From contig CAZWXQ010000002.1 of the NCBI GenBank assembly GCA_964637955.1, positions 71,782 to 135,781 on the forward strand: 64,000 nucleotides of DNA. Reading direction: 5' to 3'. Origin of the DNA: an uncultured Gammaproteobacteria bacterium (lineage in GTDB: Bacteria > Patescibacteriota > Microgenomatia > Levybacterales > UBA12049). The position numbers were made by a program, and so were the translations under genes. The notes below the pieces were generated by a model. That model saw only the letters and a list, made by a program, of their open reading frames with translations. It did not search any database and was not told where the DNA came from. This document shows, one piece after another, positions 4,006 to 58,896 of this stretch; the stretch's first letter is position 1, and each line of letters opens with the position of its first letter.

Positions 4006-4325
4006 GTTTCTCGTGTAATTAATATTACGCCTTCGTCAAATCCTCCAAGCCTTTCTAATTTTTCTTTTCTTGCAGTATTAATTTCATTTTCCGAAACTCC
4101 TTTTAAAGCAGCGAGTGAAATAATAACTTGCATTAAGTCTCCAGCTTCTACAGCAATCTTTTTACCTTCGCCATCAAATATTGCTTCAATTAATTCACGA
4201 GCCTCTTCATCCAATTTTTCTATATGTGAGTCAACTAAATCTTCTTCGGATTCGACAGTCGTGATCTTCGTGCCAGGTAAAGGAGGCAAATGCTTATATC
4301 CATCTCTGACTAATTTTCTTTCCAT
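4002..4325 (-). CDS. MazG-like nucleotide pyrophosphohydrolase (108 aa). The track ORF extends to 4517, but the internal Met at 4325 is the likely start.
   Basis: The protein begins MERKLVRDGY... The KLVRD motif, the EEARELIEA...DLMQVIISLAALKGVSENEI helix pair and the C-terminal ...EKLERLGGF are typical of the small all-alpha MazG/NTP-PPase family. The 64 upstream codons of the track ORF are hydrophobic junk and would overlap the divergent giant gene's promoter region. Confidence 0.55.
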   Translation of the reverse strand: MERKLVRDGYKHLPPLPGTKITTVESEEDLVDSHIEKLDEEARELIEAIFDGEGKKIAVEAGDLMQVIISLAALKGVSENEINTARKEKLERLGGFDEGVILITRET

Positions 4326-13126: not shown

Positions 13127-14260
13127 TTAAAGCTGACTGGGGTCAATTTGAATTATTCGGTCGTCCTGTGAGACAGGTTTTCCTCGTCCATCGCGATTGC
13201 TGGTGGAAATATAAAGTAAATTATCAGGTCCAAGAGTTACAGCTCTAATTCTGCCAAATTCATTTAAAAGATGTTTCTTGATGATCGCATTACTATTTTC
13301 AACTCTTAACTCGTACAGCGCTTCTCCCTTTAGACCGGCAAAGAAAAAAGAGTCATTAATAAATTCAGCGCTTGCTGGTGCCCAAGTTTCTTGACCACTC
13401 TGAGCAAATGGGGACTCCATGCCACTTTTAGTTTCTGTGCCTTGTATCTCTGGCCAGCCATAGTTTTTACCTTTAACAATTATGTTTACTTCGTCAAATC
13501 CTGATGGAGCAGATCTGCCGTGCTCAGTAGACCATAAGCGTCCTTGTTTATCCCATGAGATACCTTGTGGATTCCTGTGTCCATAGGAATAAACTAGATT
13601 GTTAAATGGATTTCCTGTGGCTGGGGAACCTTCATCTGTTACTCTTAGGATTTTACCTGCGAGAGAATTTGTGTTTTGCGCTAAAGATGGATTAAGAGAA
13701 TCTCCAGTTGTAATGTACAGAAATCCATCAGGTCCGAATTTAATTCTTCCACCATTGTGATAAATAGCGCCAGGAATATTATCAAGAATAACTTTTCTGT
13801 CAGTAAGATTTCCATTTTCATATTTATATCTTACGACTCGATTTTTTGTTTCATTGCCATTTGCTGCATAAGTGTAATATAAATACATATATTTATTTTT
13901 TTGAAAATCTGGATGAATAGTAAGTCCCATAAGTCCGCCTTCGCCATAAATTTTTACATCTGGGATTTTTGCAACAGTAGTGACTTGTCCATTTGCAATT
14001 AGTTTTAATTTACCCGTTCTTTCTGTAAAGAGGATTTTTTTTGGCTCGTTTTTTTTGGATTCAGGTAAAAAAGCAATTTCCCAAGGAATTTCAACACCGG
14101 TAGTAATAACTGTAACTATTTCCGGATTTTTTGTGCCATTTTCAGATTTGGTGGAACTGGTAGGAAGAATTGAAATCGGACCTGATTTTTTTTGATAAAA
14201 ATTTAAAGCTAAGGCACCTATTATAATTATAGAAATTACTATTATTAAAATCTTTGACAT
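13127..14260 (-). CDS. soluble PQQ-type glucose/sorbosone dehydrogenase family beta-propeller protein (YliI-like aldose sugar dehydrogenase) with an N-terminal membrane anchor
   Basis: Motifs GLMGLTIHPDF, GGRIKFGPDGFLYITTGD, HRNPQGISWD, EHGRSAPSGFDEVNII and GKNYGWPE match the sGDH/sorbosone dehydrogenase family. N-terminus MSKILIIVISIIIIGALALNF is an anchor. Confidence 0.8.
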   Translation of the reverse strand: MSKILIIVISIIIIGALALNFYQKKSGPISILPTSSTKSENGTKNPEIVTVITTGVEIPWEIAFLPESKKNEPKKILFTERTGKLKLIANGQVTTVAKIPDVKIYGEGGLMGLTIHPDFQKNKYMYLYYTYAANGNETKNRVVRYKYENGNLTDRKVILDNIPGAIYHNGGRIKFGPDGFLYITTGDSLNPSLAQNTNSLAGKILRVTDEGSPATGNPFNNLVYSYGHRNPQGISWDKQGRLWSTEHGRSAPSGFDEVNIIVKGKNYGWPEIQGTETKSGMESPFAQSGQETWAPASAEFINDSFFFAGLKGEALYELRVENSNAIIKKHLLNEFGRIRAVTLGPDNLLYISTSNRDGRGKPVSQDDRIIQIDPSQL

Positions 14261-39014: not shown

Positions 39015-39548
39015 ATGGAAGAAAATAACACATCAGCAAGTTCAAGTAACGGCGGAAGTAAAAAGGGATTAATTATTGCAGTAGTTGCTGTAATAGTTAT
39101 TCTAGCTGTTGCAGCTGGAGGTTTTGCGTTTTTAAATAAAGATAAGCTAATGGAGGAAGCAAATGAAAGCGCTGCTGTTGAAAATGCTGAATCTCAAGTT
39201 CAAGCTCAAGTTACTCCTGAAGCTATGCAGCAAGCAAGTCCTTCAGCAAATGTATATAAAGATGGAACTTATGAGGCTACAGGAACCTATTCGTATCATT
39301 CTGGAACTGAATCTGTAAAGGTATCGGTTACTTTGAAAGATAATATGGTTGAAGAAGTTGATGTAACCACATTGGCAAAAAATCCTACATCAAAACAGAT
39401 GCAGGCAGATTTTGCTGCTAACTATAAAACTATGGTAGTGGGCAAAAACATTAACGAAGTTAAGCTTGGAAAAGTTTCAGGTTCAAGTCTTACTCCAATT
39501 GGATTTAATGCAGCAATTGAAGACATAAAGTCTCAAGCAAAATCTTAA
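39015..39548 (+). CDS. membrane-anchored FMN-binding domain protein (NqrC/RnfG-like FMN_bind)
   Basis: TM anchor LIIAVVAVIVILAVAAGGFAFL. Domain YKDGTYEATGTY...VKVSVTL...VSGSSLTPIGFNAAIEDI carries an S-G-[AS]-S/T flavinylation-type motif. Strong SD aagggggtga. Confidence 0.6.
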   Translation: MEENNTSASSSNGGSKKGLIIAVVAVIVILAVAAGGFAFLNKDKLMEEANESAAVENAESQVQAQVTPEAMQQASPSANVYKDGTYEATGTYSYHSGTESVKVSVTLKDNMVEEVDVTTLAKNPTSKQMQADFAANYKTMVVGKNINEVKLGKVSGSSLTPIGFNAAIEDIKSQAKS

Positions 39549-40417
39549 TGAACAATTTTCAGATCAGTTTTGAAGCAATTGGAACCCATTGGGTAATCGA
39601 TTGCTTCAATTCTGTTAATGACAAAAAAATTATCGAAAAAATAATTTATGAAAGAATTGAAGATTTTGATAGAACATACTCAAGATTCCGTCATGATTCT
39701 ATAGTCTGGCAAATGTCAGAAAATGCGGGAGAATACACTCTTCCTTCTGACTCAAAAAGATTTATGGACTACTACGAATCTTTTGAGCGCGCAACAAATG
39801 GTAAATTTACTCTTCTGATTGGAAACACATTAACTGAAGCCGGATATGATTCTTCTTATGGTTTAAAGCCTGGAAAAATTAATAAAGTACCACAGTCGTC
39901 ATCTATTTATGTTTGGGATTATCCAATTCTTACTATAAAAAAACCTTATATTTTGGATTTTGGAGGACTAGGGAAAGGATATCTGATTGAAATTATTGCG
40001 GATCTATTAATTCAAAACCAAATTCAATCTTTTTGTATCGACGCAGGAGGAGACATATTTTGTAAAAATTTGGCAATACCAATTCGTGTGGGCTTAGAAA
40101 ATCCACGTGATTTTAATCAGGTGATTGGAGTAGTGGAATTGAATAACAAAAGTATATGTGCTTCATCGGGTAGTAGGAGAAGGTGGGATAAATATCATCA
40201 TATAATGGATCCTGTAACTTTAGATTCACCGGAAAATATATTGGCATCATGGGTGATTGCCGACGAGCCAATATTGGCTGATGGACTTTCAACATCTTTA
40301 TTTTTTACATCGGCCGAAAAATTATTAAAATATTTTAATTTTGAATATCTTATTCTTTATCCTGATTTTTCTATGCACAAATCACAGAATTTTTCCTCAG
40401 AATTGTTTACAAATTAA
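39548..40417 (+). CDS. apbE: FAD:protein FMN transferase (ApbE family)
   Basis: ILDFGGLGKGYLIEIIADLL (ApbE iDlGGIAKGYAvD motif) and SGSRRRW...HIMDP. Confidence 0.8.
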   Translation: MNNFQISFEAIGTHWVIDCFNSVNDKKIIEKIIYERIEDFDRTYSRFRHDSIVWQMSENAGEYTLPSDSKRFMDYYESFERATNGKFTLLIGNTLTEAGYDSSYGLKPGKINKVPQSSSIYVWDYPILTIKKPYILDFGGLGKGYLIEIIADLLIQNQIQSFCIDAGGDIFCKNLAIPIRVGLENPRDFNQVIGVVELNNKSICASSGSRRRWDKYHHIMDPVTLDSPENILASWVIADEPILADGLSTSLFFTSAEKLLKYFNFEYLILYPDFSMHKSQNFSSELFTN

Positions 40418-40450
40418 TTAGCTTAAGATAATTTTCAGTCTATTTTAAGA

Positions 40451-40972
40451 ATGGACCTCTATTATAAGTTTATGAAGAAATATTTACAGATCAGTGTAGT
40501 AGGAATTATTTTCGTTGGACTTTTACTCATAAGAAATTTTTCAGGTGGCGATGAAGATGAAATAAATGTTGGAGAAGCAAGCTCACAAGTGATAAATTCT
40601 ACCCAAGTAACTAAAACTCAGAATTCATCATCAAATCAAAATAATTCTTCAACTTTTGCTGCAAATACTCCGGCAGATACAACCGGAAAATATAAAGATG
40701 GAACATATTTAGGAACTGTAGAGGATGCGTATTATGGGAATGTTCAAGTAAAAGTAGTGATAAGTGATGGAAAAATAGTTGATGCCACTTTAGCTCAGTA
40801 CCCAAATGATAATCACACCTCAATTAGAATAAACAGTTTAGCGGAAGGATACTTGAAAGCAGAGGCAATTGATGCTCAAAGTGCAAATATAAATAATATT
40901 TCAGGGGCTTCGCTCACCAGCGCAGCATTTAAAACTTCACTTGCTTCAGCGTTATCTCAGGCGCAAAATTAA
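40451..40972 (+). CDS. membrane-anchored FMN-binding domain protein, a paralog of the 39015 gene
   Basis: GKYKDGTYLGTVEDAYYGNVQVKVVISDGKIVDATL...ISGASLTSAAFKTSLASAL has the FMN_bind fold pattern with an SGAS-L-T acceptor motif. Confidence 0.7.
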   Translation: MDLYYKFMKKYLQISVVGIIFVGLLLIRNFSGGDEDEINVGEASSQVINSTQVTKTQNSSSNQNNSSTFAANTPADTTGKYKDGTYLGTVEDAYYGNVQVKVVISDGKIVDATLAQYPNDNHTSIRINSLAEGYLKAEAIDAQSANINNISGASLTSAAFKTSLASALSQAQN

Positions 40973-42499
40973 ATGAAAATACCTATAGTTGATGATGTTT
41001 TAAATAAAATTACAATGTATAGGATTACATTGTATTACCTTATTTTTTTGACAATAGTTGCCGGAATTTTAGGATTTTTTAACCTTATTAATGTAAATCC
41101 ATTAACCCTAATTATTACAGGAATTTATATTTTAACTTTGTGTTATCTGTCAAATTATATTTTTGCTTATTTTTTTAAAGCAAGCAGAAATATAGAGTCT
41201 GTATTTATAACCGCATTAATTTTACTTTTAATAATTCCAACAAATTTTCCAAACAATTTAATTTTTATTTCTCTCGCTTCAATTGTTTCGATTGGAATAA
41301 AGTATTTGCCAACAATAGATAAAAGGCATATTTTTAACCCTGCGGCCGGAGCTCTTGCTGCCATAACTCTTCTTATACCTGAATATGCTGCTACTTGGTG
41401 GGTAGGGACGCCTATGCTTCTTCCATTTGTTTTTCTGGGAGGACTTTTGGTCGTTAGGAAAGTTAGAAGGGAAGAGATGGTTGGACTGTTTGTAATTACC
41501 TATCTAATTCTTATTTCAATTACATCAATTTTTCATAATTTAAGTTTTACATATTTGATAAATAGTCTGCGAATGAGTGTTTTTGATACAGCATTATTCT
41601 TTTTTGCTTTTGTAATGTTTACAGAGCCAATTACATCTCCACCAACTAAAAAACTTCAAGGATACTTTGCGCTATTAACCGCATTTCTATATGCAACGCC
41701 TCAATTAAAGTTTTTTGGATTTGTTTTAACCCCAGAAGAAGCTTTAAGTATTTCAAATATTTTTAGTTACATTGTCAGTCCAAAATACAGACTTACTTTA
41801 AAACTTAAAGAAAAAATTGCAGTTGCCCAGAATACATTGGTTTTTAATTTTGGAAAAGTGAATAATTTTAATTTTACTCCGGGACAGTATATGGAGTGGA
41901 CGCTACCACATCCAAATGCTGATAACAGAGGAAATAGAAGATATTTTAGTTTATCATCAAGTCCTGCTGAGGATGTGCAAATTGCCGTAAGGTTTCACGA
42001 AAAAAGGAGTAGTTATAAAAAAGCAATGCTAGCAATGCAGTCAGGGTCTGTAATAACTGCAAATGCACTCGCCGGAGATTTTACTGTTCCAATTTCTAAA
42101 TTAAATAATACTGTATTTATTGCTGGAGGCATTGGGATTGCTCCATTTAGAAGTATTATTCAGGATTTAGTTGACAAAAACATAAAAGTGGATTTGTATT
42201 TATTCTATTCAAATAGAAGCTGGAACGAGGTTGCGTTTTTAGAATTATTTCAAAAAGCATTTAATAATGGCGTTAAAACTGTGTATACACTTACCGATAA
42301 AAATAACTTACCTGAGAATTGGCAAGGAGAAGTGGGACATTTTACCCCCGAGTTCATCAAAAAGTATATTAGTGATTGGAAGAGTAAGACTTTTTATATT
42401 TCAGGTCCCCAAAATATGGTTTCTTCAACGCAAGAAATGTTACTTAAGGCTGGAATTAAAAGAAAAAATATAATGACTGATTTTTTCCCCGGATTCTAG
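40973..42499 (+). CDS. fusion protein: polytopic RnfD/NqrB-like membrane domain plus C-terminal FNR-like FAD/NAD(P)H-binding reductase domain (508 aa)
   Basis: Membrane domain with HIFNPAAGALAAITLL (RnfD NPFNPAM-like) and FAFVMFTEPITSPP (RnfD GAFFILTDPVTAS-like). C-terminal domain with RRYFSLSSSP (RxYS FAD motif), GGIGIAPFRS (NAD(P)-binding GGxGxxP) and a terminal ...DFFPGF. Confidence 0.65.
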   Translation: MKIPIVDDVLNKITMYRITLYYLIFLTIVAGILGFFNLINVNPLTLIITGIYILTLCYLSNYIFAYFFKASRNIESVFITALILLLIIPTNFPNNLIFISLASIVSIGIKYLPTIDKRHIFNPAAGALAAITLLIPEYAATWWVGTPMLLPFVFLGGLLVVRKVRREEMVGLFVITYLILISITSIFHNLSFTYLINSLRMSVFDTALFFFAFVMFTEPITSPPTKKLQGYFALLTAFLYATPQLKFFGFVLTPEEALSISNIFSYIVSPKYRLTLKLKEKIAVAQNTLVFNFGKVNNFNFTPGQYMEWTLPHPNADNRGNRRYFSLSSSPAEDVQIAVRFHEKRSSYKKAMLAMQSGSVITANALAGDFTVPISKLNNTVFIAGGIGIAPFRSIIQDLVDKNIKVDLYLFYSNRSWNEVAFLELFQKAFNNGVKTVYTLTDKNNLPENWQGEVGHFTPEFIKKYISDWKSKTFYISGPQNMVSSTQEMLLKAGIKRKNIMTDFFPGF

Positions 42500-42536
42500 A
42501 ATAGCAAGAAAGAAAAAAAATTAGTAAAATAAAATC

Positions 42537-44036
42537 ATGAAATATTTTGACATATTCCTGAATAAATTTTCAATGTATAAGGTAGTTTTGTTTAGCTTGT
42601 CTGCTATATTTTTAGTTTCTCTGATTTATTCGTTTATGGGTGTAATTTTTTATAAACCCCTAAACATTATTTCAAGTTTGGCAATACTTACTGCTGTTTG
42701 TTTTTTAGCAAATTACATAATTAGTACTATTTTAAAAATTCCATATAATTTTGAATCTCCATTTATTACGGCTTTAATAATGACTTTTGTAATGGTGCCA
42801 ATTTCTAAAATCTCAGATTTATATATTTATGTTCTCGCAGGTGCATTGGCTATGTTAAGTAAATATATTTTAGCTTTAAATAAAAAGCATATTTTTAATC
42901 CTGCAGCTTTTGGATTGGTGGTAATCGGTTTAGCTGGTTTTCCTCAGATCAATTGGTGGGTGGGGAATTCGCATTTATTTCCATTCGTTTTGGTATTTGG
43001 ATTATTAGTGGTTAGAAAATTAAGGAAATTTTCAATGTTTTCCACTTATTTTATTTTCTCCTTAATGTCAATTTCTTTTTTCGCTGTTCAAAATCAGAGA
43101 GATTTATTTACTACACTAATAGAAGCTATTACTTCATATCCGCTGTTATTTTTGGGGGCATTTATGCTTATTGAGCCGTTAACAACTCCACCAAGAAAAA
43201 AAGAGCAGTTAATTTATGGTGGAATTGTGGGAGTTTTATCAGGCGCTCAATATCATATTGGTCCTATTTATTCTACGCCTGAATTCGGACTTCTTATAGG
43301 AAATGTTTATTCTTTCATAGTAAGTTTTCGAAGAAGACTTGCTTTGACTTTTGACCACAAGAAAGAATTAGCTCCTGGAATTTTTGAGTTTTCATTTCTA
43401 AAGAATTCAAATTTTGATTTTCATCCGGGAGAATATCTGGAGTGGACTTTGGGAAATGTTAAATACGACTTTAGAGGACAGAGAAGATTTTTTTCTATTG
43501 CTTCAGCTCCAACTGAAAACGATATAAAAATAGGTATTAAAACTTTTGAAAAAGGCAGTAATTTTAAAAATAAATTATTAGCACTTAAAAGAGGAGATAA
43601 GATTTATGCAAGTAATTTAATGGGCGATTTTCTTCTATCTAAAAAACATGGGAAATATGTCTTTATTGCGGGAGGAATAGGGATTACACCATTTAGAAGT
43701 ATGATAAAAAATGCACTTGATAAAAATGAAAAAATTGACGCCGTCTTATTTTATTCGTGCTCGGAAGAGAGCGATTTCATTTATCGAGATGTTTTTGAAT
43801 CTGCAAGTAAAATTGGATTAAAAACTATTTATATTTGTTCACATCCATCAGAGCAATTCAAAGGAGTAAGGGAAAGAATTAATTCAGAAATTTTAATAAA
43901 AGAAGTACCTGATTATAAATCGCGAACATTTTATCTTTCTGGACCAAATGTAATGGTTAATGGATATAAAAAACTATTAAAAGGATTGGGAATAAGGTTT
44001 GATAAGATTATTACTGACTATTTCTCCGGATATTAA
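42537..44036 (+). CDS. tandem paralog of the preceding RnfD/NqrB-like-FNR fusion (499 aa)
   Basis: Same architecture: HIFNPAAFGLVVIGL, LGAFMLIEPLTTPP, RRFFSIASAP, GGIGITPFRS and a C-terminal ...DYFSGY. Confidence 0.65.
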   Translation: MKYFDIFLNKFSMYKVVLFSLSAIFLVSLIYSFMGVIFYKPLNIISSLAILTAVCFLANYIISTILKIPYNFESPFITALIMTFVMVPISKISDLYIYVLAGALAMLSKYILALNKKHIFNPAAFGLVVIGLAGFPQINWWVGNSHLFPFVLVFGLLVVRKLRKFSMFSTYFIFSLMSISFFAVQNQRDLFTTLIEAITSYPLLFLGAFMLIEPLTTPPRKKEQLIYGGIVGVLSGAQYHIGPIYSTPEFGLLIGNVYSFIVSFRRRLALTFDHKKELAPGIFEFSFLKNSNFDFHPGEYLEWTLGNVKYDFRGQRRFFSIASAPTENDIKIGIKTFEKGSNFKNKLLALKRGDKIYASNLMGDFLLSKKHGKYVFIAGGIGITPFRSMIKNALDKNEKIDAVLFYSCSEESDFIYRDVFESASKIGLKTIYICSHPSEQFKGVRERINSEILIKEVPDYKSRTFYLSGPNVMVNGYKKLLKGLGIRFDKIITDYFSGY

Positions 44037-44106: not shown

Positions 44107-45102
44107 ATGTTTGAGAAATTATCTAAAATTGATTTTCAATGGAATCACGCGATAAAAGCTGCGGTTTGCATGTTTCCGATGCTTGTTGCATACATAACTG
44201 GTCATGATTCTCTTTTGGTCCCTTTTGGTCAAGGAGGATTTTTTTATAGCACTTTACCTCTTCCTGAAAAAAAATTGGAAAGAATAATGTATATGTTTTT
44301 GATGGTAGGGGTAGGACTTGGTTTTTATATACTCGGAGGAACTGCGGCGCAAAGCCCAATGCTTTCTATTTTTATTACATTTGTAGTAATGGTAACAATA
44401 GCGTTAATCAGCGGAGGAAAAATGTTAGCTCCAATATCTTTTTCATTAGTTTCAGTATATACAGCTGGTCTTAATGTAAGTGATCCAGCGAAATTATCAG
44501 CTAATTTTGAAGGATTTGCATTTATTTTTATACTTTGTGGTTTTATTTCACTTTTTTCATTTTGGAAGCCATCAGATCTTACAAAATATAGAATTTTTAA
44601 ACCTGCTGAAAATTTAGTCGCAGGAGTAAAGCTGGGTATTGGAACTTCAATTGCTCTTGCGCTCGGAAATTATTTTGATTTTGCAAAACTTGGTTGGCCA
44701 GTAAGTGCTGTTGGAACTATTGTTAGGTTTAATGAGGTGGAAAGTAAAAAAAGAGCTGTTAGTAGAGTTATTGGAACCGTAGGGGGTTCTGTTATGGCAA
44801 TTATTTTATTTTTAGTATTTTCTGTTCCTACTGTATTTATGATATTGGCTTATGTTTTCGGAATTCTGCATTCCTTAATGAGTAAAACCTTGCTTGGGAA
44901 AACTGTATTTTTTTACACAGTTACAATTCTCATTCTCTATTCAATGAATGATTTATCTACGGGTCCTTTAATAGCAGCCCAAAGGATTTTTTATAATTTA
45001 ATAGGAGTTCTTATTGCAGTATTTGTAGTTTTCTATCCGTTCCCAAAGCTTATGAAGAGACTTGAGAAAACAATTTCCGATTACGAAAGCTCGCTGCATT
45101 AA
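44107..45102 (+). CDS. hypothetical polytopic membrane protein (possibly FUSC/ArAE-like)
   Basis: Eight or more hydrophobic helices. The family assignment is weak. Confidence 0.45.
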   Translation: MFEKLSKIDFQWNHAIKAAVCMFPMLVAYITGHDSLLVPFGQGGFFYSTLPLPEKKLERIMYMFLMVGVGLGFYILGGTAAQSPMLSIFITFVVMVTIALISGGKMLAPISFSLVSVYTAGLNVSDPAKLSANFEGFAFIFILCGFISLFSFWKPSDLTKYRIFKPAENLVAGVKLGIGTSIALALGNYFDFAKLGWPVSAVGTIVRFNEVESKKRAVSRVIGTVGGSVMAIILFLVFSVPTVFMILAYVFGILHSLMSKTLLGKTVFFYTVTILILYSMNDLSTGPLIAAQRIFYNLIGVLIAVFVVFYPFPKLMKRLEKTISDYESSLH

Positions 45103-45157: not shown

Positions 45158-45703
45158 ATGCCAGAAAAAAAAGAAAAATCAACAAAAGAAGTAAGTGATC
45201 CAAAAAACAAACAAAAAAATCTACTTGTTCTTTTCGCAGTAGCAGTTTTAATCGGAGCAGGAGCATATTATTTTATAAATCAAAAAAATATAAACACTTC
45301 AACGCCACCTGATGTGAATAAAGTCACAATGGCTCCAGATAATTCAAATTCAGGTTCAAATAATTCATCAGAATTAACATCTAAGAAATGGACATGGGTA
45401 AATACAAAAATGTCCGATGGAGCGGTAACTTCTCCAAGTAAAGATGGAGCTTTTACTGCCACTTTTCAGGATGATGGTAGATTAGTTGCTACAACAGATT
45501 GTAATAATGGAAACGGATCTTATGAAGTTGGAGCAGATAACACGCTTACAATTGGACCTATGGCCACTACAATGATGTTTTGCGAGGGTTCAAGTCAAGA
45601 CGCTTATTTTCAGCAATTGGGAAATGTAGGAAGTTATAAGGTAAATAATGGTCAGCTTTGGTTGATGATTAAATTTGATAGTGGAACAATGATCTTCGAG
45701 TAA
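45158..45703 (+). CDS. META/HslJ-domain (DUF306) secreted protein
   Basis: N-terminal anchor. TDCNNGNGSYEVGADNTLTIGPMATTMMFCEGSSQDAYFQQLGNVGSYKVNNGQLWL matches the META domain pattern (GCN...G.y......l.i..a.T.M.C). Confidence 0.7.
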   Translation: MPEKKEKSTKEVSDPKNKQKNLLVLFAVAVLIGAGAYYFINQKNINTSTPPDVNKVTMAPDNSNSGSNNSSELTSKKWTWVNTKMSDGAVTSPSKDGAFTATFQDDGRLVATTDCNNGNGSYEVGADNTLTIGPMATTMMFCEGSSQDAYFQQLGNVGSYKVNNGQLWLMIKFDSGTMIFE

Positions 45704-50138: not shown

Positions 50139-51017
50139 ATGAAAAAACTGCCAATTATTATTCTGGTGCTTATTGTAATTGGAATTATATTCTGGTTTTC
50201 TTTTCTAATCTCACAATCAAATATTCAGGTTTTTAATCCAAAAGGTGATATAGCTTCACAGCAAAGAGATCTTATTTATATTGCTATGGGAGTTATGCTT
50301 TCGATAGCTATTCCTGTTGTTTTAACTGCATTTTTTATAATGTGGAGGTATCGAGATGGAGGCAAAGGAAAACATGAACCTGAAAAAACAGGGGGAAGAT
50401 TAACTTTATTTATTTTTTGGCTCTTTTTCCTGGAGCTAGTTTTATTTTTCTTTTATCTTGTAATAAGAGGATCATATTCTCTGGATCCACATAAAGAAAT
50501 CATTGCTGATGTTCCTCCAAAGACAATTCAAGTGGTGGCTTTAGATTGGAAATGGCTATTTATTTATCCCGAGGAAAATATAGCAGTTGTAAATTTTCTC
50601 CAAGTTCCAGCAAAAACTCCTATCAGTTTTAAATTAACTGCAGATGGACCTATGAATTCTTTTTGGATTCCTCAGCTTGGAGGTCAAATTTATTCTATGG
50701 CTTCGATGGAAACTAGTATTCATTTGATGGCAGATGAAATTGGTGATTTTCAAGGAGGAGCAGCGGAGATAAATGGGCGAGGATTTGCAGGTATGAGATT
50801 TATTACACGTTCTAGTACCGAGGATGATTTTGAGGATTGGGTAAAGTGGGTTAAGCTTTCAGGAGAGCCACTTACAAAAAGTAAATATGAAGAGTTAGCT
50901 AAGCCATCCGAAGATAGTCCAATAATTTACTATTCAGAAGTTGAGGAAGGACTATATAATAATATTATGATGAAGTATATGGCTCCTGGTGAGTCTCATG
51001 GGGGGGGAGATGAATGA
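50139..51017 (+). CDS. cyoA: cytochrome o (bo3-type) ubiquinol oxidase subunit II
   Basis: WKWLFIYPEENIAVVNFLQVPAKTPISFKLTADGPMNSFWIPQLGGQIYSMASMET is the quinol-oxidase subunit II signature. It lacks CuA ligands. Confidence 0.85.
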   Translation: MKKLPIIILVLIVIGIIFWFSFLISQSNIQVFNPKGDIASQQRDLIYIAMGVMLSIAIPVVLTAFFIMWRYRDGGKGKHEPEKTGGRLTLFIFWLFFLELVLFFFYLVIRGSYSLDPHKEIIADVPPKTIQVVALDWKWLFIYPEENIAVVNFLQVPAKTPISFKLTADGPMNSFWIPQLGGQIYSMASMETSIHLMADEIGDFQGGAAEINGRGFAGMRFITRSSTEDDFEDWVKWVKLSGEPLTKSKYEELAKPSEDSPIIYYSEVEEGLYNNIMMKYMAPGESHGGGDE

Positions 51018-52984
51018 GCAATAATTTATATTATTTAATTTTTGGAAAATTAACTATTGAAGCTTTGCCGCATCAATGGTTTACAATCGCAGGAACAGTA
51101 TTTATTTCACTTTCAGGTATTTTTGTAATTGTATTAATCACGTATTTTAAAAAGTGGAAATTTTTATGGAGTTATTTAACCTCAACTGATCCTAAGAAGA
51201 TTGGAGTAATGTACATAGTTTTTGCCACTCTTATGTTGATTCGAGGTGGACTTGATGCTGTTATGATTTGGCTCCAGCAAGCTATGGCATTGGGGCCAAA
51301 TCAGGGATATCTGGATGGTCAACATTTTCAGGAAATTTTTACAGCACATGGAGACATAATGGTTTTCTTTGTGGCCATGGGATTCCTTATTGGATTAATT
51401 AATATAATTGTTCCGCTCCAAATTGGAGCACGAGATTTGGCTTCACCATTTTTAAATACTCTTGGTTTTTGGCTTTATGTTGCAGGGGGAGTTCTTATAA
51501 ATGTATTTTTTGTTTTTGGTGGTACGTTTGCTTCAGCAGGTTGGCTGTCAGTAGCTCCACTATCAGAATTGCAATATAGTCCAGGAATTGGAATTGATTA
51601 TTGGATGTGGGCTATTCAAATTTCAGGATTGGGAACACTTTTGGGTGGAATAAATTTCGTGATGACAATTCTTAAAATGCGTGCTCCGGGAATGACCTTA
51701 ATGCGAATGCCACTTTTTACATGGACGTCTCTTTGCAGCATGGTTTTGGTAATTTGCATTTTTCCAATTCTTACAGCAACTTTGGCGCTTTTAAATCTTG
51801 ATCGACTTCTAGGAATGCACTTCTTTACAAATAGTAATGGGGGAGATCCAATGCTTTACACTAATCTTATTTGGATGTGGGGGCATCCCGAAGTTTATGT
51901 TTTAGTTTTGCCTTTGTTTGGAGTTTTTTCAGAGATTGTCTCAACATTTTCTCAGAAAAGAGTATTTAGTTATAAAACTCTTGTAACTTCTGCGATTATA
52001 ATTACAGCTTTCTCAATGCTCGTATGGTTGCATCATTTCTTCACTATGGGAGCGGGAGCAAGTGTTAATGCTTTCTTTGGAATGATGACTGTAATAATAG
52101 CTCTTCCTACAAGTATTCAGGTTTTCTGCTGGATAGCCACTATGCATAAAGGGAAAATTCAATTTAAAACTCCAATGCTCTGGTTTATGGGTTTTCTTTT
52201 AACGTTTACATTCGGTGGGCTGACAGGGGTATTAATGGCTATTCCTCCTGCGGATTTTCAAATACATAATAGTTTATTTTTAGTTGCACATTTTCATACG
52301 ATGGCAGTGGGAGGAGCACTTTTTGGAATATTTGCAGCAATTACTTACTGGTTTCCTAAGATTGCAGGTTTTAGGCTCGATGAAAGACTGGGAAGATACG
52401 CATTTTTTGCCTGGATTATAGGATTTTTTGTAGCTTTTACGCCTCTTTATATCTTAGGTCTTATGGGAGCGACAAGAAGACTAAATCATTATGTGGATGC
52501 AAGTTGGCAACCACTCTTTATAACTGCTCTTATTGGCTCTCTTATTATCGGGTTAGGGTTTTGTCTTCAAGTTTTGCAAATAGGTGTAAGTATTAAAAAT
52601 AGGAAGAAATTAGCAGTTGATGGTGATCCTTGGAATGGGCGAACTCTTGAATGGGCAACAAAATCTCCAACTCCTTTTTATAACTTTGCAGTGCTTCCGG
52701 AAGTTAAATCAATTGATGCTTTTTGGGAAATGAAGAAGAGTGGGGAATTCGGAGAGAAATTAAAATATGAAGCAATTCATGTTCCTAAAAATACAGCCAC
52801 TGGGATGTTTGCAGCTGCATTTTGTTTCCTAATTGGATTTTCTATGGTTTGGCATATTTTCTGGTTGGCAGGCTTAAGTCTAGTTGGTGCAATTGCTGTA
52901 GTAATCTATCGTTCACTTGATGAGCATACGGAATATGAAATTTCCGCAAATGAACTTGAGAGATTAGATTTGGGAAAAATATGA
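51014..52984 (+). CDS. cyoB: cytochrome o ubiquinol oxidase subunit I
   Basis: Heme-copper oxidase subunit I motifs WFMGFLLTFTFGGLTGVLMA and HFHTMAVGG. Its start overlaps the cyoA stop (ATGA). Confidence 0.9.
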   Translation: MSNNLYYLIFGKLTIEALPHQWFTIAGTVFISLSGIFVIVLITYFKKWKFLWSYLTSTDPKKIGVMYIVFATLMLIRGGLDAVMIWLQQAMALGPNQGYLDGQHFQEIFTAHGDIMVFFVAMGFLIGLINIIVPLQIGARDLASPFLNTLGFWLYVAGGVLINVFFVFGGTFASAGWLSVAPLSELQYSPGIGIDYWMWAIQISGLGTLLGGINFVMTILKMRAPGMTLMRMPLFTWTSLCSMVLVICIFPILTATLALLNLDRLLGMHFFTNSNGGDPMLYTNLIWMWGHPEVYVLVLPLFGVFSEIVSTFSQKRVFSYKTLVTSAIIITAFSMLVWLHHFFTMGAGASVNAFFGMMTVIIALPTSIQVFCWIATMHKGKIQFKTPMLWFMGFLLTFTFGGLTGVLMAIPPADFQIHNSLFLVAHFHTMAVGGALFGIFAAITYWFPKIAGFRLDERLGRYAFFAWIIGFFVAFTPLYILGLMGATRRLNHYVDASWQPLFITALIGSLIIGLGFCLQVLQIGVSIKNRKKLAVDGDPWNGRTLEWATKSPTPFYNFAVLPEVKSIDAFWEMKKSGEFGEKLKYEAIHVPKNTATGMFAAAFCFLIGFSMVWHIFWLAGLSLVGAIAVVIYRSLDEHTEYEISANELERLDLGKI

Positions 52985-53565
52985 CAGAAGAAAAAGAATT
53001 TCAAGAAAAACAAGAGATAGCAGTTTTTGGGTTCTGGGTTTATCTGATGACAGATTTACTTATGTTTGCTGTGTTATTTGCTTGTTTTGCAGTGCTTAGA
53101 GGAAACACTTTCGGTGGACCACCAGAGAGTGAATTAATAAGTCTTCCTTTCGTGTTGGTAGAAACACTCCTTCTTTTAACCAGTAGTTTTACAGTGGGGC
53201 TAGCTGTAATTTCTGCAAGAAATAAAAATCTTAAAGCCACAATTATTTCTCTCGTAATAACTTTTATTTTGGGAGCATCATTTTTAGGAATGGAAATTTA
53301 TGAATTTAGTAATTTAATTTCTGAAGGACTTTCATGGAGAGCAAGCGCATCGCTTTCATCATTTTTTGCATTAGTAGGACTTCATGGACTTCATATTTTT
53401 GCTGGGCTTATCTGGCTTTTTATTATTATTCTTTATATTTTGAAAAGGGGACTTATTCCGCTTTCCATCAGAAAACTTGCGCTTTTTAGTCTTTTTTGGC
53501 ATTTCTTAGATATTGTTTGGATTTTTATCTTTACTTTTGTTTATCTGATAGGAGTCATACTATGA
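52981..53565 (+). CDS. cyoC: cytochrome o ubiquinol oxidase subunit III
   Basis: Five-helix subunit III pattern. Its start overlaps the cyoB stop (ATGA). Confidence 0.8.
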   Translation: MTEEKEFQEKQEIAVFGFWVYLMTDLLMFAVLFACFAVLRGNTFGGPPESELISLPFVLVETLLLLTSSFTVGLAVISARNKNLKATIISLVITFILGASFLGMEIYEFSNLISEGLSWRASASLSSFFALVGLHGLHIFAGLIWLFIIILYILKRGLIPLSIRKLALFSLFWHFLDIVWIFIFTFVYLIGVIL

Positions 53566-53966
53566 TAGAAAATAAGCATGTGCCTACAATAAAATCTTAT
53601 ATTATTGGTTTTGGATTATCACTTATTTTAACATTCATAGCATTTGGTGCGACATATTTTCATATTAACTCAGGACATTATTTTATTGATCACAATATTA
53701 TCATTCCATTAGTTCTTGTTTTGGCGATGATGCAGCTTGTGGTTCAGCTCGTTTTTTTCCTTCATATTCTTCAAGAGGATAAGCCTCGTTGGAATCTTAT
53801 GTTTTTTATTGGAACTTTTGGATTGGTTCTAATGGTTGTTATAGCATCTCTTTGGATAATGACTCACTTAAATTACAATATGACTCCGCAAGCTTCTACA
53901 GATTATATACTTCATGATGAAGGCATAAATCATCACCATGGAGAGGATGATCATGGAGAAGATTAG
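53562..53966 (+). CDS. cyoD: cytochrome o ubiquinol oxidase subunit IV. The ATG at 53562 overlaps the cyoC stop; the track ORF from 53496 is rejected.
   Basis: MIENKHVPTIKSYIIGFGLSLILTFIAF... with three TM helices. GGAG lies 7 nt upstream. C-terminal His/Asp-rich tail. Confidence 0.65.
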   Translation: MIENKHVPTIKSYIIGFGLSLILTFIAFGATYFHINSGHYFIDHNIIIPLVLVLAMMQLVVQLVFFLHILQEDKPRWNLMFFIGTFGLVLMVVIASLWIMTHLNYNMTPQASTDYILHDEGINHHHGEDDHGED

Positions 53967-54813
53967 AAATTATTACCGCCTCACAAAGCCTGGAATTATC
54001 TACGGAAATATGCTTTCGACCATCGCTGGATTTCTTCTCGCAGCAGGATTAAATATTGACGTACTTTTATTCTTCTCAACTATTCTTGGAACAGCTTTAG
54101 TTATTGCTTCATCCTGTGTCATAAATAACTATACAGACCGAGAAATTGATAAGAAAATGAAAAGGACTAAGAATCGTGCGCTTGCTCAAGGCTTGATTCC
54201 TCGTAATAACGTATTTGTTTTCGCCGCGATATTAGGAGTTCTCGGATTTGGAATACTAATTCTTTTTACCAATTCCTTGGTAGTATTTTCAGGAATAATT
54301 GCTATGATTTCTTATACAGTTTTTTATGGTATCGCGAAAAGAAAAAGTCCTGTCGGAACTTTAGTTGGAACAGTCCCAGGTGCAATGCCACTAGTCGCAG
54401 GATATCTAGCAGTTACGAATTCAATTAATCTTGGAGCAATTCTTTTATTCTTTATAATGGTTTTCTGGCAACTTCCACATTTTTATGCTATTGGAATTTT
54501 TAGGCTGAATGATTATAGAGAGGCAGGTCTTCCAATTTTGCCAGTCAAGAGGGGAGTAAGAATCACGAAAATCCATATGTTAATTTGCATGGTTTTATTT
54601 GTTATTTGCTGCTTTTTATTAACGCATTTTGGATATACGGGAAATATATTTGCTTGGGTGATGCTACTTCTGGGACTGAGATGGATTTATATGGGTATTA
54701 AAGGTTTGAAAATCACTGACGATATAAAGTGGGCGAGAAAGGTTTTCTTTTTCTCAATAGTAATTCTAATGAGCATGAGCGCTCTTATGGCATTTAATGT
54801 TGTATTGCCATAA
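53938..54813 (+). CDS. cyoE: protoheme IX farnesyltransferase (heme O synthase). Possible alternative starts at 53947 and 53953.
   Basis: YYRLTKPGIIYGNMLSTIAGFLLAA and the UbiA-family Asp-rich motif NNYTDREIDKKMKRTKNR. Confidence 0.85.
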   Translation: MERMIMEKIRNYYRLTKPGIIYGNMLSTIAGFLLAAGLNIDVLLFFSTILGTALVIASSCVINNYTDREIDKKMKRTKNRALAQGLIPRNNVFVFAAILGVLGFGILILFTNSLVVFSGIIAMISYTVFYGIAKRKSPVGTLVGTVPGAMPLVAGYLAVTNSINLGAILLFFIMVFWQLPHFYAIGIFRLNDYREAGLPILPVKRGVRITKIHMLICMVLFVICCFLLTHFGYTGNIFAWVMLLLGLRWIYMGIKGLKITDDIKWARKVFFFSIVILMSMSALMAFNVVLP

Positions 54814-56231: not shown

Positions 56232-57884
56232 TTACCAATTAGTCCTGATGTGGTCCATGGCGTAAGAGAGGGAAGAGTGGACTTTTTTTCTAGGGTTAAA
56301 GATATTTTCAGGGTCGAAAATCTTTTTTGTTTCTTCAAATAACTCTACTATTTTTTTGCCATACATTACTTCTAGATAAGGGCTTCTGATTAGGCCATCG
56401 TTATGTTCTCCAGTTATCGAGCCATTGTATTTTGAAATGATTGCATAAACTTGGTCTGAAATTTCTGGAATAGCCTTTCTAACTTTTGGATCTTTGATAT
56501 CAACTAAGGGAATGATATGGAAATTTCCATCTCCCACATGACCTGCTACAGTGAATCTAAACTCAGGATGTTTTTTAAGAATATCTGTAACTTGAGGAAT
56601 TACTTCTTTTATATCTCTCGGATTTATTACAAAGTCATCTATAAATGGAGCTGTGTGTTTGTTTCTGATTTTTTTTCGCAGAAGATTAAAGCTTTCGCGT
56701 CTAACCAGCCAATACTTTTTCTCTGCATCATCAATTGCGATGTAGGTCTCAGGATGTAATGGTTTTAGTTTTTCACGAAGTTGGGCTATTTTTTTATTAT
56801 TTTCTTCTGGGTCATTGCTTGCAAAATCTACTTGGAGAATGAGCTTTGGAAGACGACCAAATCCCATTTCTATGAAAGCCGGTAAAAATGCAACTGTGGC
56901 TTGGAGCATTCCAGAAATTCCAAGTTGCTTTGCGAATTCAGGGAAATATTTTAGTGCAAGTTTAAGAGTGTTATCATCATAGCTTTCGAAACTCTCAGGC
57001 TTGAGAGGAAGCACTGCATCAATTATTTCTCCCAAGTGATCTAGGTTATGCATGTAAATAATTTCCATTTCATGATGTTTCATTACAGGTACTAGTTCTA
57101 GTTCTGCTTCAAGCATAAGGCCAAGCGTTCCTTGAGCTCCAGTCCAAAGCTTGGTCAAGTCAAAAGTTTTTGTTTCTGGATCCCAAACATTCCACAAGAA
57201 ATATCCTGCTGAGTTTTTGCTAACTGGAGGCTTAGCTTTGGCAATTATCTCCCAATTATCTTTAATGAGTTTTTCCATTTTTCTATAGATTTCGCCTTCA
57301 AAATCTTTTTGGTCTTTTTTCTTTTCAAGCTGTTCTTCGCTTAGAGGCTTTAGTTCATAAGTATTTCCGTCAGATAGAACTACTTTTATTTTCTTTACAA
57401 AGTTTTCTGTTTTTCCATACAGAAGGGATTTTTCTCCACCTGAGTTATTATTAACAATTCCTCCCATAGCACAAAGACCTCGAGAAGCAGGGTAGGAAGC
57501 AAAGATAAGATCTTTCTTTAGAGTTTCTACTTCAAAGTCCCTATAGAAAACTCCAGGTTCTGTCGAGACAACATTGTCTTTTATTTCTCCCATGTGGGTA
57601 AAATATTTTCCAAAAGCTACTGAAATACTGTCATTAATACTTCCGCCGCCCATGTCAGTTCCTGCAGCGCGTCCAGTAAGAGAAAGATCTTTGTGGTCTT
57701 TTTTATGTTTGTTTACGAATTTAACTAATTCTTCTATGTCTTTCGCGCCTTTTGGAAAAACAACGACTTGAGGTTTTACTTCAAATAGACTTGCGTCATG
57801 GGAATAGGTGGTAAGCGTTTCGTCTGTGGTATCTATATCTCCATCCAGAGATTTCTTTAATTCCTCGAGCAGATTTTGATCCAT
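56232..57884 (-). CDS. FAD-linked oxidase (GlcD/D-lactate dehydrogenase-like, PCMH-type FAD-binding). The internal Met at 57884 is preferred; the track start at 58004 would overlap the upstream gene by 100 nt.
   Basis: FAD-binding region VVFPKGAKDIEELVKFVNKHK and GRAAGTDMGGGS. C-terminal GSITGEHNDGLIRSPYLEVMYGKKIVELFEETKKIFDPENIFNPRK. Confidence 0.7.
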   Translation of the reverse strand: MDQNLLEELKKSLDGDIDTTDETLTTYSHDASLFEVKPQVVVFPKGAKDIEELVKFVNKHKKDHKDLSLTGRAAGTDMGGGSINDSISVAFGKYFTHMGEIKDNVVSTEPGVFYRDFEVETLKKDLIFASYPASRGLCAMGGIVNNNSGGEKSLLYGKTENFVKKIKVVLSDGNTYELKPLSEEQLEKKKDQKDFEGEIYRKMEKLIKDNWEIIAKAKPPVSKNSAGYFLWNVWDPETKTFDLTKLWTGAQGTLGLMLEAELELVPVMKHHEMEIIYMHNLDHLGEIIDAVLPLKPESFESYDDNTLKLALKYFPEFAKQLGISGMLQATVAFLPAFIEMGFGRLPKLILQVDFASNDPEENNKKIAQLREKLKPLHPETYIAIDDAEKKYWLVRRESFNLLRKKIRNKHTAPFIDDFVINPRDIKEVIPQVTDILKKHPEFRFTVAGHVGDGNFHIIPLVDIKDPKVRKAIPEISDQVYAIISKYNGSITGEHNDGLIRSPYLEVMYGKKIVELFEETKKIFDPENIFNPRKKVHSSLSYAMDHIRTNW

Positions 57885-57903
57885 ATAAACATTGTAACCG
57901 GAA

Positions 57904-58896
57904 TTACGATTTTCTCGCAATGACCTTTTTGACAGCGTCCTTGATCGCGTCTTTACCCATGTTATATTTTTCAAGAAGCTCCAAAGTAGTTCCTGACTCT
58001 GCAAAAGTATTTTGGAGTCCTATAAATTCCATAGGAAGGGGAGTAGTTTTAGCAAGTTCTTCGGAGATAGCGCTCCCAAGACCACCAGCTACTTGATGAT
58101 CTTCGACTGTTACAACGGCTTTTGAATCTTTGGTGAAATTTCTGATTCCTTCAGAATCCAGAGGTTTTATCGTAGGAGTATTCACGACAATTACATTTAT
58201 CCCTTCGTTTTCAAGATCTTTTGAAGCGAGTAGAGCATAATAAGTCATGTAGCCCATTGAGAAAATTGTCGCCTGGGGATTTTCACTTACCCAAAAATCA
58301 TACATTTTTCCAACCTCAAACGGAGTTTCATTGGTAGTTATAATAGGAGACTTATCTCTGGTGTATCGAAGGTAAACTGGGCCATCGATCCCGGCTGAAG
58401 CTATCGTTGCTTTTTTAGATTCAACGCTGTCGCATGGCACCATAATTTGAATTATTGGCCAACAGCGGGTGATAGCGATGTCTTCTGTGGCTTGATGAGT
58501 AGCCCCGTCTGGGCCTGTCATAACTCCTGCATGATGGCCTGCGATTTTTACATTTGCATTATTATAAACACAAGTAGTTCTGATAGTTTCCCAGTTTTTT
58601 CCGGGAGAAAATGTAGCATAGGAGGAGATAAATGCTATTTTTCCAGTTACAGCTAAGCCTGCAGCAACTGCTGCCATGTTTTGTTCGCCAATTCCTATCT
58701 CAAAAAACCTTTCAGGATATTTTTCTGCAAATTTATGAGCGTGTGTAGACTCGGTAAGATCTGCAGAAAGAGCTACTACGTTTGGATTTGTCTCTCCCAG
58801 CTCCAGAAGTCCACTTCCATATCCTGCACGAGTTGGTGAGGCCTCAACGTCTTCATCAAATATTTTTTCGTTAAGTTTGAGATTAGGATTTAACAT
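57904..58896 (-). CDS. transketolase, C-terminal (pyrimidine-binding) subunit of a split transketolase
   Basis: ...EIGIGEQNMAAVAAGLAVTGKIAF..., HAGVMTGPDGATHQATEDIA and the C-terminal domain. Confidence 0.85.
   Translation of the reverse strand: MLNPNLKLNEKIFDEDVEASPTRAGYGSGLLELGETNPNVVALSADLTESTHAHKFAEKYPERFFEIGIGEQNMAAVAAGLAVTGKIAFISSYATFSPGKNWETIRTTCVYNNANVKIAGHHAGVMTGPDGATHQATEDIAITRCWPIIQIMVPCDSVESKKATIASAGIDGPVYLRYTRDKSPIITTNETPFEVGKMYDFWVSENPQATIFSMGYMTYYALLASKDLENEGINVIVVNTPTIKPLDSEGIRNFTKDSKAVVTVEDHQVAGGLGSAISEELAKTTPLPMEFIGLQNTFAESGTTLELLEKYNMGKDAIKDAVKKVIARKS

Follow-up and report, generated by a model that had tools for sequence, protein, structure and literature searches.

The "NQR/RNF-like system" has been defined by Méheust et al. 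(eLife, 2021) as a fusion of the PF03116 and PF00175 domains lying within a flavinylation gene cluster with ApbE and/or FMN_bind, and it occurs mainly in Actinobacteria and in the Candidate Phyla Radiation (CPR) (PMC8238504). Huang et al. (mSystems, 2024) modelled the two-subunit complex of Ktedonobacter racemifer, showed that its membrane domain is devoid of the conserved threonine, and suggested that the covalent flavin of the partner reaches a non-covalent flavin site in the membrane subunit; in the published AlphaFold-multimer model the partner was docked on the extracytosolic side (PMC11334425). A one-way flow of electrons from NAD(P)H to the outside has already been proposed for this system (PMC8238504, PMC11334425). 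In RnfD and NqrB, riboflavin lies toward the cytoplasm and flavin mononucleotide (FMN) toward the periplasm, ~8 Å apart, and the quinone pocket of NqrB consists of two extra N-terminal amphipathic helices which RnfD does not have (PMC12174285). Here we describe a five-gene cluster which almost certainly belongs to the NQR/RNF-like family. It is located at positions 39015–44036 of a 64 kb stretch of contig CAZWXQ010000002.1, and the whole of this stretch is called the window in what follows.

The cluster was composed of five consecutive open reading frames (ORFs), O1 to O5, all on the + strand, whose order, strand and coordinates were as given in a preliminary description of this DNA. The spacing was short or overlapping, with the stop of O1 overlapping the start of O2, and O4 starting at position 40973 immediately after the end of O3 at position 40972. 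The GC content of the window was 30–40%, and its source is probably a Patescibacterium of the Microgenomates group. The genes and the motifs discussed below are the following (types A and B are described with the related loci):

39015..39548, + strand: O1, 177 residues, a membrane-anchored divergent FMN_bind protein, usual partner of type-B fusions.
39477..39488, + strand: acceptor motif S155-G-S-S158 of O1, Ser158 being the predicted FMN attachment site.
39548..40417, + strand: O2, an ApbE flavin transferase (long form, type B) devoid of signal peptide or lipobox.
40451..40972, + strand: O3, a membrane-anchored FMN_bind protein, NqrC/RnfG-like, usual partner of type-A fusions.
40901..40912, + strand: acceptor motif S151-G-A-S154 of O3, Ser154 being the predicted FMN attachment site.
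40973..42499, + strand: O4, a type-A fusion of an RnfD/NqrB-like ten-helix membrane domain (residues 1–268) and an NqrF-like FAD/NAD(P)H reductase (residues 270–508).
41375..41419, + strand: outward-facing loop of O4 (residues 135–149, containing WWVG), remnant of the loop that carries the covalent-FMN threonine in NqrB/RnfD.
41936..41950, + strand: FAD-binding motif RRYFS of O4 (residues 322–326).
42122..42145, + strand: NAD(P)H-binding motif AGGIGIAP of O4 (residues 384–391).
42537..44036, + strand: O5, a type-B fusion with the same two-domain architecture as O4, of a separate old lineage.

The two large proteins correspond to the published definition. In the Pfam scan, O4 matched PF03116 in its N-terminal part (31.6 bits for a cutoff of 27.7) and PF00175 in its C-terminal part (48.8 bits). 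O5 matched PF00175 at 49.9 bits, with PF03116 at 25.0 bits, slightly under the 27.7 cutoff, and was 39% identical to O4 from end to end (E=2e-105). Both fusions were clustered with an adjacent same-strand ApbE gene and an FMN_bind gene (O3). As in the complex described by Huang et al., the membrane domain had no flavinylated threonine, and the NqrC/RnfG-homologous partners carried SGAS or SGSS near the C-terminus. The preliminary description had flagged the RnfD-FNR fusion as a new architecture; it is already in the literature as the NQR/RNF-like system, as is the loss of the threonine. Its five domain assignments all held, by Pfam for O2 to O5 (with the reservation made above on PF03116 in O5) and by profile comparison for O1. 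The cluster differs from the published system, which has two subunits, by the presence of two fusions and two partners with one ApbE, and by the divergence of the partner O1, too great for detection by Pfam.

The NCBIfam models gave only a generic FNR-family similarity (NqrF included) and a faint RnfD match for the fusions. When the profile of the membrane domain was compared with all PDB chains, RnfD (E=1e-4) and NqrB (E=0.016) were the only matches, and the ten-helix membrane fold superposed on the solved RnfD/NqrB structures. A ferric-reductase heme domain, the alternative named beforehand for this part of the proteins, was excluded: there was no PF01794 match, and the membrane half matched RnfD/NqrB and not the membrane domains of NOX. 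For each FNR half taken alone, NqrF was the sole PDB match below 1e-8, and the terminal D-x-F-x-G of the FNR halves aligned to the C-terminus of NqrF. The aligned portion of NqrF was restricted to the FAD/NAD part (residues 244–410 of 7xk3_F, and FAD-domain constructs), and no Fer2 (2Fe-2S ferredoxin) domain was found by Pfam in the window ORFs scanned.

The expected cofactor motifs were found on alignment, with invariant core residues in the 86 homologs compared. In the FAD motif, R322, R323 and F325 were invariant and Y324 and S326 at least 90% conserved; we take this RRYFS to be a flavin-binding motif of the RxYS/RPFS type of the FNR superfamily. In the NAD(P)H motif, A384, G385, G386, G388 and P391 were invariant, and AGGIGIAP aligned with GGAGMAP of NqrF. 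Different preferences for NADH and NADPH might account for the retention of two fusions, and the stretch after beta-strand 2 was compared for this purpose: O4 showed YSNRS, like the NADH-specific NqrF (YGARS), and O5 showed YSCSEE.

The main departure from NqrB and RnfD lies in the membrane domain. The end of the FNPA block of NqrB (residue 208) and its C-terminal block (residue 273) are separated by ~65 residues (209–272, including T236), against ~17 in the fusions. Because Thr236, which bears the covalent FMN of NqrB, falls inside the missing stretch, the alignment indicates that the FMN-bearing loop of NqrB/RnfD is deleted in the fusions. No [ST]GA[ST] motif was present in O4 or O5, in agreement with the earlier claim that these domains are devoid of the covalent-FMN threonine. 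The SGAQ of O5 was considered as a flavinylation site and rejected: it is in the wrong place, beyond the EPLTTPP block instead of within the FMN loop, its serine is not conserved in the type-B alignment, where the consensus is LFGxQ, and a glutamine cannot take the phosphoester. K and R together averaged 0.17 per remnant loop over 36 sequences, and this loop is accordingly predicted to lie outside; the loops at residues 110–122 and 158–170 were K/R-rich, which places them, together with the FNR domain, inside. Because of this charge bias the topology of the fusions is predicted to be of the RnfD/NqrB type, with the remnant loop out and, as the preliminary description had expected, the FNR domain in. 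Only ~14 residues precede the first transmembrane helix, and position 51 of the profile aligned to residue 135 of NqrB; the N-terminal helices of the NqrB quinone pocket are, as judged from this alignment, absent from the fusions.

The survey of related loci covered 47 species-representative genomes and 80 metagenome contigs and gave 120 loci with a full-length fusion; neighbour counts were made on 44 genome loci. A scan of the metagenomes with O5 alone returned nothing, and the 80 metagenome loci came from an alignment-driven scan. The usual unit was made of three genes, the partner, ApbE and the fusion. The fusion, ApbE and FMN_bind were linked in 41–44 of the 44 genome loci and in most of the metagenome loci long enough to show linkage. 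Two types of module were distinguished:

Type A, the majority of loci: an O3-like partner, a short ApbE of 241–255 residues starting with MKQTxxIMGMP, and an O4-like fusion.
Type B, loci L033, L034, L036, L043, L053, L054, L056, L062, L089 and L120: an O1-like partner, a long O2-like ApbE of 288–328 residues starting with ...FEAIGT, and an O5-like fusion.

In a neighbour-joining tree, O4 fell within a type-A subclade, and O5 and its ortholog of L048 were placed within the type-B clade, O5 grouping with L048b, L036, L033, L034 and L043, outside all the type-A sequences. The order in the window, O1 - ApbE (type B) - O3 - O4 - O5, reads as a type-B module (O1, O2 and O5) into which a type-A pair (O3 and O4) lacking an ApbE of its own has been inserted. 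A recent tandem duplication of O4/O5, as the preliminary description had seen it, was rejected: the fusions belong to two deep clades, which normally go with different types of partner and of ApbE, so that the cluster is better described as a merger of modules. Two fusions were present in only 2 of the 120 loci, the window and its closest relative L048, which has the same five-gene set. In L049, L050 and the P0005 contig, O1-ApbE-O3-O4 was kept and an MFS transporter or a FUSC_2 gene occupied the place of O5. The relatives at 54–55% identity possessed a plain type-A module.

Thousands of full-length homologs of O4 with both Pfam domains were found, at a best identity of 62–63%, and those with a name came from Levybacteria/Levyibacteriota and Patescibacteria. 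With the membrane domain alone, 1,155 clusters at 50% identity were retrieved, 649 of them at E<=1e-10, and nearly all the full-length ones measured 480–530 residues. The published survey listed 127 clusters after a signal-peptide filter (PMC8238504); the family is commoner than this count suggests, that survey having required a signal-peptide prediction in each cluster. We also observed that ten GTDB records titled "uncultured Gammaproteobacteria" (L002, L003, L007, L008, L012, L013, L017, L022, L024 and L033) bear modules and neighbours of the Patescibacteria type, and these titles are probably mislabelled.

Concerning the partners, O3 was a clear member of PF04205 (30.6 bits for a cutoff of 22). 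O1 had no FMN_bind match in Pfam, and aligned to O3 across its C-terminal 98 residues. A comparison by hhalign of the profiles of 6 O1-like and 30 O3-like proteins gave a probability of 98.2% (E=3e-14). The match spanned the FMN_bind domain in full and brought the acceptor motifs into line, VSGSSLTP of O1 being opposite the VSGATxTS consensus of the O3 family. O1 thus appears from its profile to be a divergent FMN_bind protein; the earlier call was right, though Pfam alone does not show it. The presence of acceptor motifs on both small proteins was also verified. VSG[SA]SLT was conserved in five of the six O1-like proteins, the other (L033) having VAGSSLT, and G152 and A153 of the O3 motif were invariant in 30 homologs. 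In 86 of the 92 partners, [ST]G[AS][ST] was found within the last 45 residues (SGAT 47, SGAS 18, TGAT 13, SGSS 8). The N-terminus of O1 consists of KK followed by a single hydrophobic helix, and that of O3 of KK, a hydrophobic helix and an acidic flank, which predicts an N-in, C-out orientation. These K-rich and hydrophobic N-terminal segments are consistent with signal anchors that would direct both FMN_bind domains outward, as had been supposed. A comparable anchor (K-rich start, hydrophobic helix, and acidic or S/T/N/Q-rich linker) was present in 90 of the 92 partners. In seven loci (L033, L043, L053, L054, L056, L062 and L120), the long ApbE and the type-B fusion had an ortholog of O1 on their 5' side; in most loci, the gene preceding the short ApbE and the type-A fusion was O3-like.

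O2 matched PF02424 (E=1e-38), and its blocks GGD, SG, YHHIMDP and ADGLST aligned to solved ApbEs, including TM1553 (HHI.DP and AD.LST pattern). It is, on this alignment, an ApbE flavin transferase, with predicted catalytic activity. No second ApbE was found in the window.

The cluster shares distinct parts with several characterised systems. It resembles Na+-NQR by its NqrF-matching reductase half, its NqrB-like fold, and its NqrC-like partner accompanied by ApbE. It differs from it in that the fusions are devoid of the 2Fe-2S ferredoxin domain of NqrF, of the T236 loop and of the N-terminal quinone-pocket helices of NqrB, and in that its ApbE is not a lipoprotein. No family match to NqrA, NqrD, NqrE, RnfA, RnfB, RnfC or RnfE was found among the window ORFs scanned against Pfam, in keeping with the preliminary description, and no NqrA, NqrD or NqrE gene was adjacent in the 44 related loci. 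The RnfC-RnfD-RnfG branch of RNF is the other likeness, but RnfA, RnfB, RnfC and RnfE are missing from the window ORFs scanned and from the related loci, NAD(P)H is handled by the fused NqrF-type FNR domain instead of RnfC, and the covalent-FMN loop of RnfD is deleted. NOX/FRE enzymes (SpNOX, NOX5, DUOX) conduct electrons through a bis-heme ferric-reductase domain, whereas the RnfD/NqrB fold is presumed here to hold flavin; on the membrane side, where PF01794 has no match, they are analogues and not relatives. Finally, the cytoplasmic ApbE of Klebsiella pneumoniae, which flavinylates a soluble fumarate reductase, is signal-less like O2, but its substrate is cytoplasmic, whereas the substrates here are N-terminally anchored and predicted to be outside.

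We propose that the cluster probably works as an electron wire from NAD(P)H through FAD, a non-covalent flavin and the covalent FMN of O3 or O1 to an extracytoplasmic acceptor; we infer the cofactor content, the direction of the electron flow, the acceptor and the pairing of partners with fusions. In this model, the cytoplasmic NqrF-like domain of each fusion would oxidise NAD(P)H on FAD, and the electron would pass to a non-covalent flavin near the cytoplasmic side of the membrane domain, at the equivalent of the riboflavin site of RnfD/NqrB. It would then reach the FMN covalently attached by ApbE to O3 (at Ser154) or to O1 (at Ser158), with the anchored FMN_bind domain docked on the outer face where RnfD/NqrB would hold its own covalent FMN, and would finally be delivered to the extracytoplasmic acceptor. 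The type-A (O3 and O4) and type-B (O1 and O5) modules would share the single type-B ApbE, O2. Overall, electrons would run outward through the equivalent of the RnfC-RnfD-RnfG (or NqrB-NqrC) branch, a fused NqrF-type dehydrogenase standing in for RnfC, and flavins would play the part that hemes have in the transmembrane NAD(P)H oxidoreductases of the NOX type. The general idea of such a wire, already present in the preliminary description, matches the published proposal (PMC8238504, PMC11334425).

Several points weigh against this model. The ApbE had no export signal in any of 77 module-linked cases, which leaves the delivery of flavin to an exported domain unexplained. No conserved gene for a terminal acceptor was found next to the module in the 44 genome loci; the neighbours were only partial, namely a MacAB-like exporter in 11–14 of the 44, two-component regulators in 8 and FTR1 in 4. 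The published work on the system includes no biochemically characterised member of the family, and the binding of a non-covalent flavin by the membrane domain has only been modelled. The retention of O1 without O5 in three close relatives (L049, L050 and the P0005 contig) makes a strict A/B pairing uncertain.

The quinone pool is another possible destination of the electrons. The genes of a cytochrome bo-type quinol oxidase, cyoABCD, with cyoE (UbiA-family), were located at positions 50139–54813 (+ strand), 6 kb 3' of the cluster, and the preliminary description had suggested a quinone route on this basis. In such a scheme the fusion would be an NAD(P)H:quinone oxidoreductase reducing a scavenged quinone in the membrane, which cyoABCD would oxidise with O2, giving these bacteria of small genome a short respiratory chain without complex I. 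The same proximity was observed 3–7 kb downstream in L048, L049 and L050, and cyoABCE was present 1.8 kb 3' of the type-A module of L103 (1–9719, ~59% GC, unrelated to the window lineage). NqrB is moreover the quinone-reducing subunit of NQR, and the cyo operons of CPR have been described as devoid of quinone biosynthesis and of an obvious electron donor, with an adjacent "oxidoreductase" (PMC8407418). However, cyo was within 10 kb in only 5 of the 120 loci, 4 of them of one sublineage, which makes some two independent events over the 1.4 Mb of flanking sequence covered, for a chance expectation of about one to two neighbours assuming one cyo operon per ~1 Mb genome. A functional link to cyo has no support above chance. 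No cyo was near the relatives at 54–55% identity, and in L103 the module and cyo have an ORF on the reverse strand and a small GTPase gene between them. A 590-residue FAD-linked oxidase (FAD_binding_4 and FAD-oxidase_C; 56232–58004, - strand) follows cyo in the window, and L049 and L050 also have it next to cyo. This enzyme may be the "oxidoreductase" mentioned beside the CPR cyo operons (PMC8407418), a role that this conserved neighbour could fill as well as the fusion. An exported covalent-FMN subunit would also be unnecessary for a quinone reductase. The NAD(P)H:quinone route via cyo is weakly supported, because the proximity is close to chance and the pocket of NqrB is missing, with the short N-terminus described above; we consider it unlikely. 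At the left end of the window (12–2423), an ORF of 803 residues gave a marginal match to the ABC1/UbiB atypical kinases (23.2 bits for a cutoff of 22.9). Since this family is linked with the making or handling of quinones, the match may matter for a genome that carries cyo and is said to be devoid of quinone synthesis.

The localisation of the ApbE, a point absent from the preliminary description, sits awkwardly beside exported FMN_bind domains. The first beta-strand (MNNFQISFEAIGT) is where the O2 ORF starts, and no extension upstream is possible because its start overlaps the stop codon of O1. Among the 77 module-linked ApbEs, taking the longest possible ORF, none had a hydrophobic segment (17-mer) ahead of the first beta-strand, the median being 7 residues upstream, and no signal peptide, lipobox or transmembrane segment was found in any of them. 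Characterised ApbEs are lipoproteins, and the characterised signal-less ones act on cytoplasmic substrates (PMC12052999). The localisation of ApbE is not discussed in the main text of either paper describing the system (PMC8238504, PMC11334425). These features would agree with an absence of electron export, with ApbE and the FMN_bind domains both acting on the cytoplasmic face, or with some other cytoplasm-side role for the flavinylated partners, so that the system would be an inward-facing membrane-bound NAD(P)H-dependent reductase. Yet the partners begin with MKK, a hydrophobic stretch of 18–20 residues and a linker that is acidic or S/T/N/Q-rich, as N-in/C-out anchors usually do; they are homologous to the periplasmic NqrC/RnfG; the membrane domain has its vacated FMN loop on the outside; and the AlphaFold-multimer model places the partner on the extracytosolic side (PMC11334425). 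This inward arrangement appears quite improbable.

Tentatively, ApbE may work on the cytoplasmic side across the family, the FMN being attached to the C-terminal motif before the domain crosses the membrane, although we would not give this the better chance. A terminal motif of 7 residues suffices for ApbE in vitro (PMC12052999), and the modification of an unfolded chain before export is for this reason chemically plausible. It is also possible that the ApbE is exported via an unrecognised route, that the FMN_bind domains are in fact cytoplasmic, or that a second, secreted ApbE is encoded elsewhere in the source genome.

Lastly, a minimal redox-driven Na+ or H+ pump working through the RnfD/NqrB-like domain, with a coupling like that proposed for RnfD/NqrB in RNF and NQR, or an uphill electron flow driven by an ion gradient, is very unlikely: the membrane domain retains the complete RnfD/NqrB fold, a descendant of Amt/urea channels that has been put forward as a path for ions, with N73, S76, K110, H119 and N122 invariant in both alignments in or near the membrane helices and E75 and E218 invariant in alignment A1 and at least 90% conserved in alignment A2, but the RnfA/E (NqrD/E) pair and the mobile-subunit switching of current coupling models are absent, and the conserved polar residues could simply bind flavin.

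Two genes lie between the cluster and cyo and are given as context only:

44107..45102, + strand: FUSC_2-family membrane protein (PF13515, E=9e-14), directly 3' of the cluster.
45158..45703, + strand: anchored META-domain protein (PF03724, E=1.4e-15), between the flavin cluster and cyo.

The FUSC_2 gene was placed likewise in L048 and the P0005 contig and was absent from the wider family. The META-domain gene was kept in L048, L049, L050 and the P0005 contig and absent elsewhere, and its product carries a low-complexity linker. Elsewhere in the window, an ORF of 2,256 residues (4380–11150) had a methyltransferase domain near residues 1,910–2,011 as its sole Pfam match, and a soluble glucose/sorbosone dehydrogenase (GSDH, PF07995, E=7e-82), normally an extracytoplasmic pyrroloquinoline quinone enzyme, was encoded at 13127–14260 (- strand). 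The Rfam scan of the whole 64 kb gave nothing at the gathering score, and no tRNA, rRNA or riboswitch was detected. In the related loci, the exporter set was found directly 5' of the module (11–14 of the 44 genome loci) and comprised a YknX-like membrane-fusion protein, a MacB/FtsX permease, an ABC ATPase and a 154-residue Gly/Arg-rich protein, for example at positions 4275–8038 of L002; it was present in the P0005 contig too. Metal-homeostasis genes (FTR1 iron permease, Fur, ZnuA/ABC-3 and Rrf2) were near the module in L051 (1–5509), and FTR1 recurred in four loci (L051, L012, L020 and L028). These neighbours call to mind the association with VIT1 described by Méheust et al. (PMC8238504).

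The presence of two diverged modules side by side makes this a convenient locus for testing partner specificity. The observation on ApbE bears on how extracellular flavoproteins are made, and flavinylation before export, if true, would be an undescribed route to extracytoplasmic flavoproteins needing no export of FAD. The CPR/Patescibacteria have almost no electron-transport machinery, and a two-protein wire from NAD(P)H to the outside could be one of their main outlets for reducing equivalents, or could reduce iron or host-derived acceptors.

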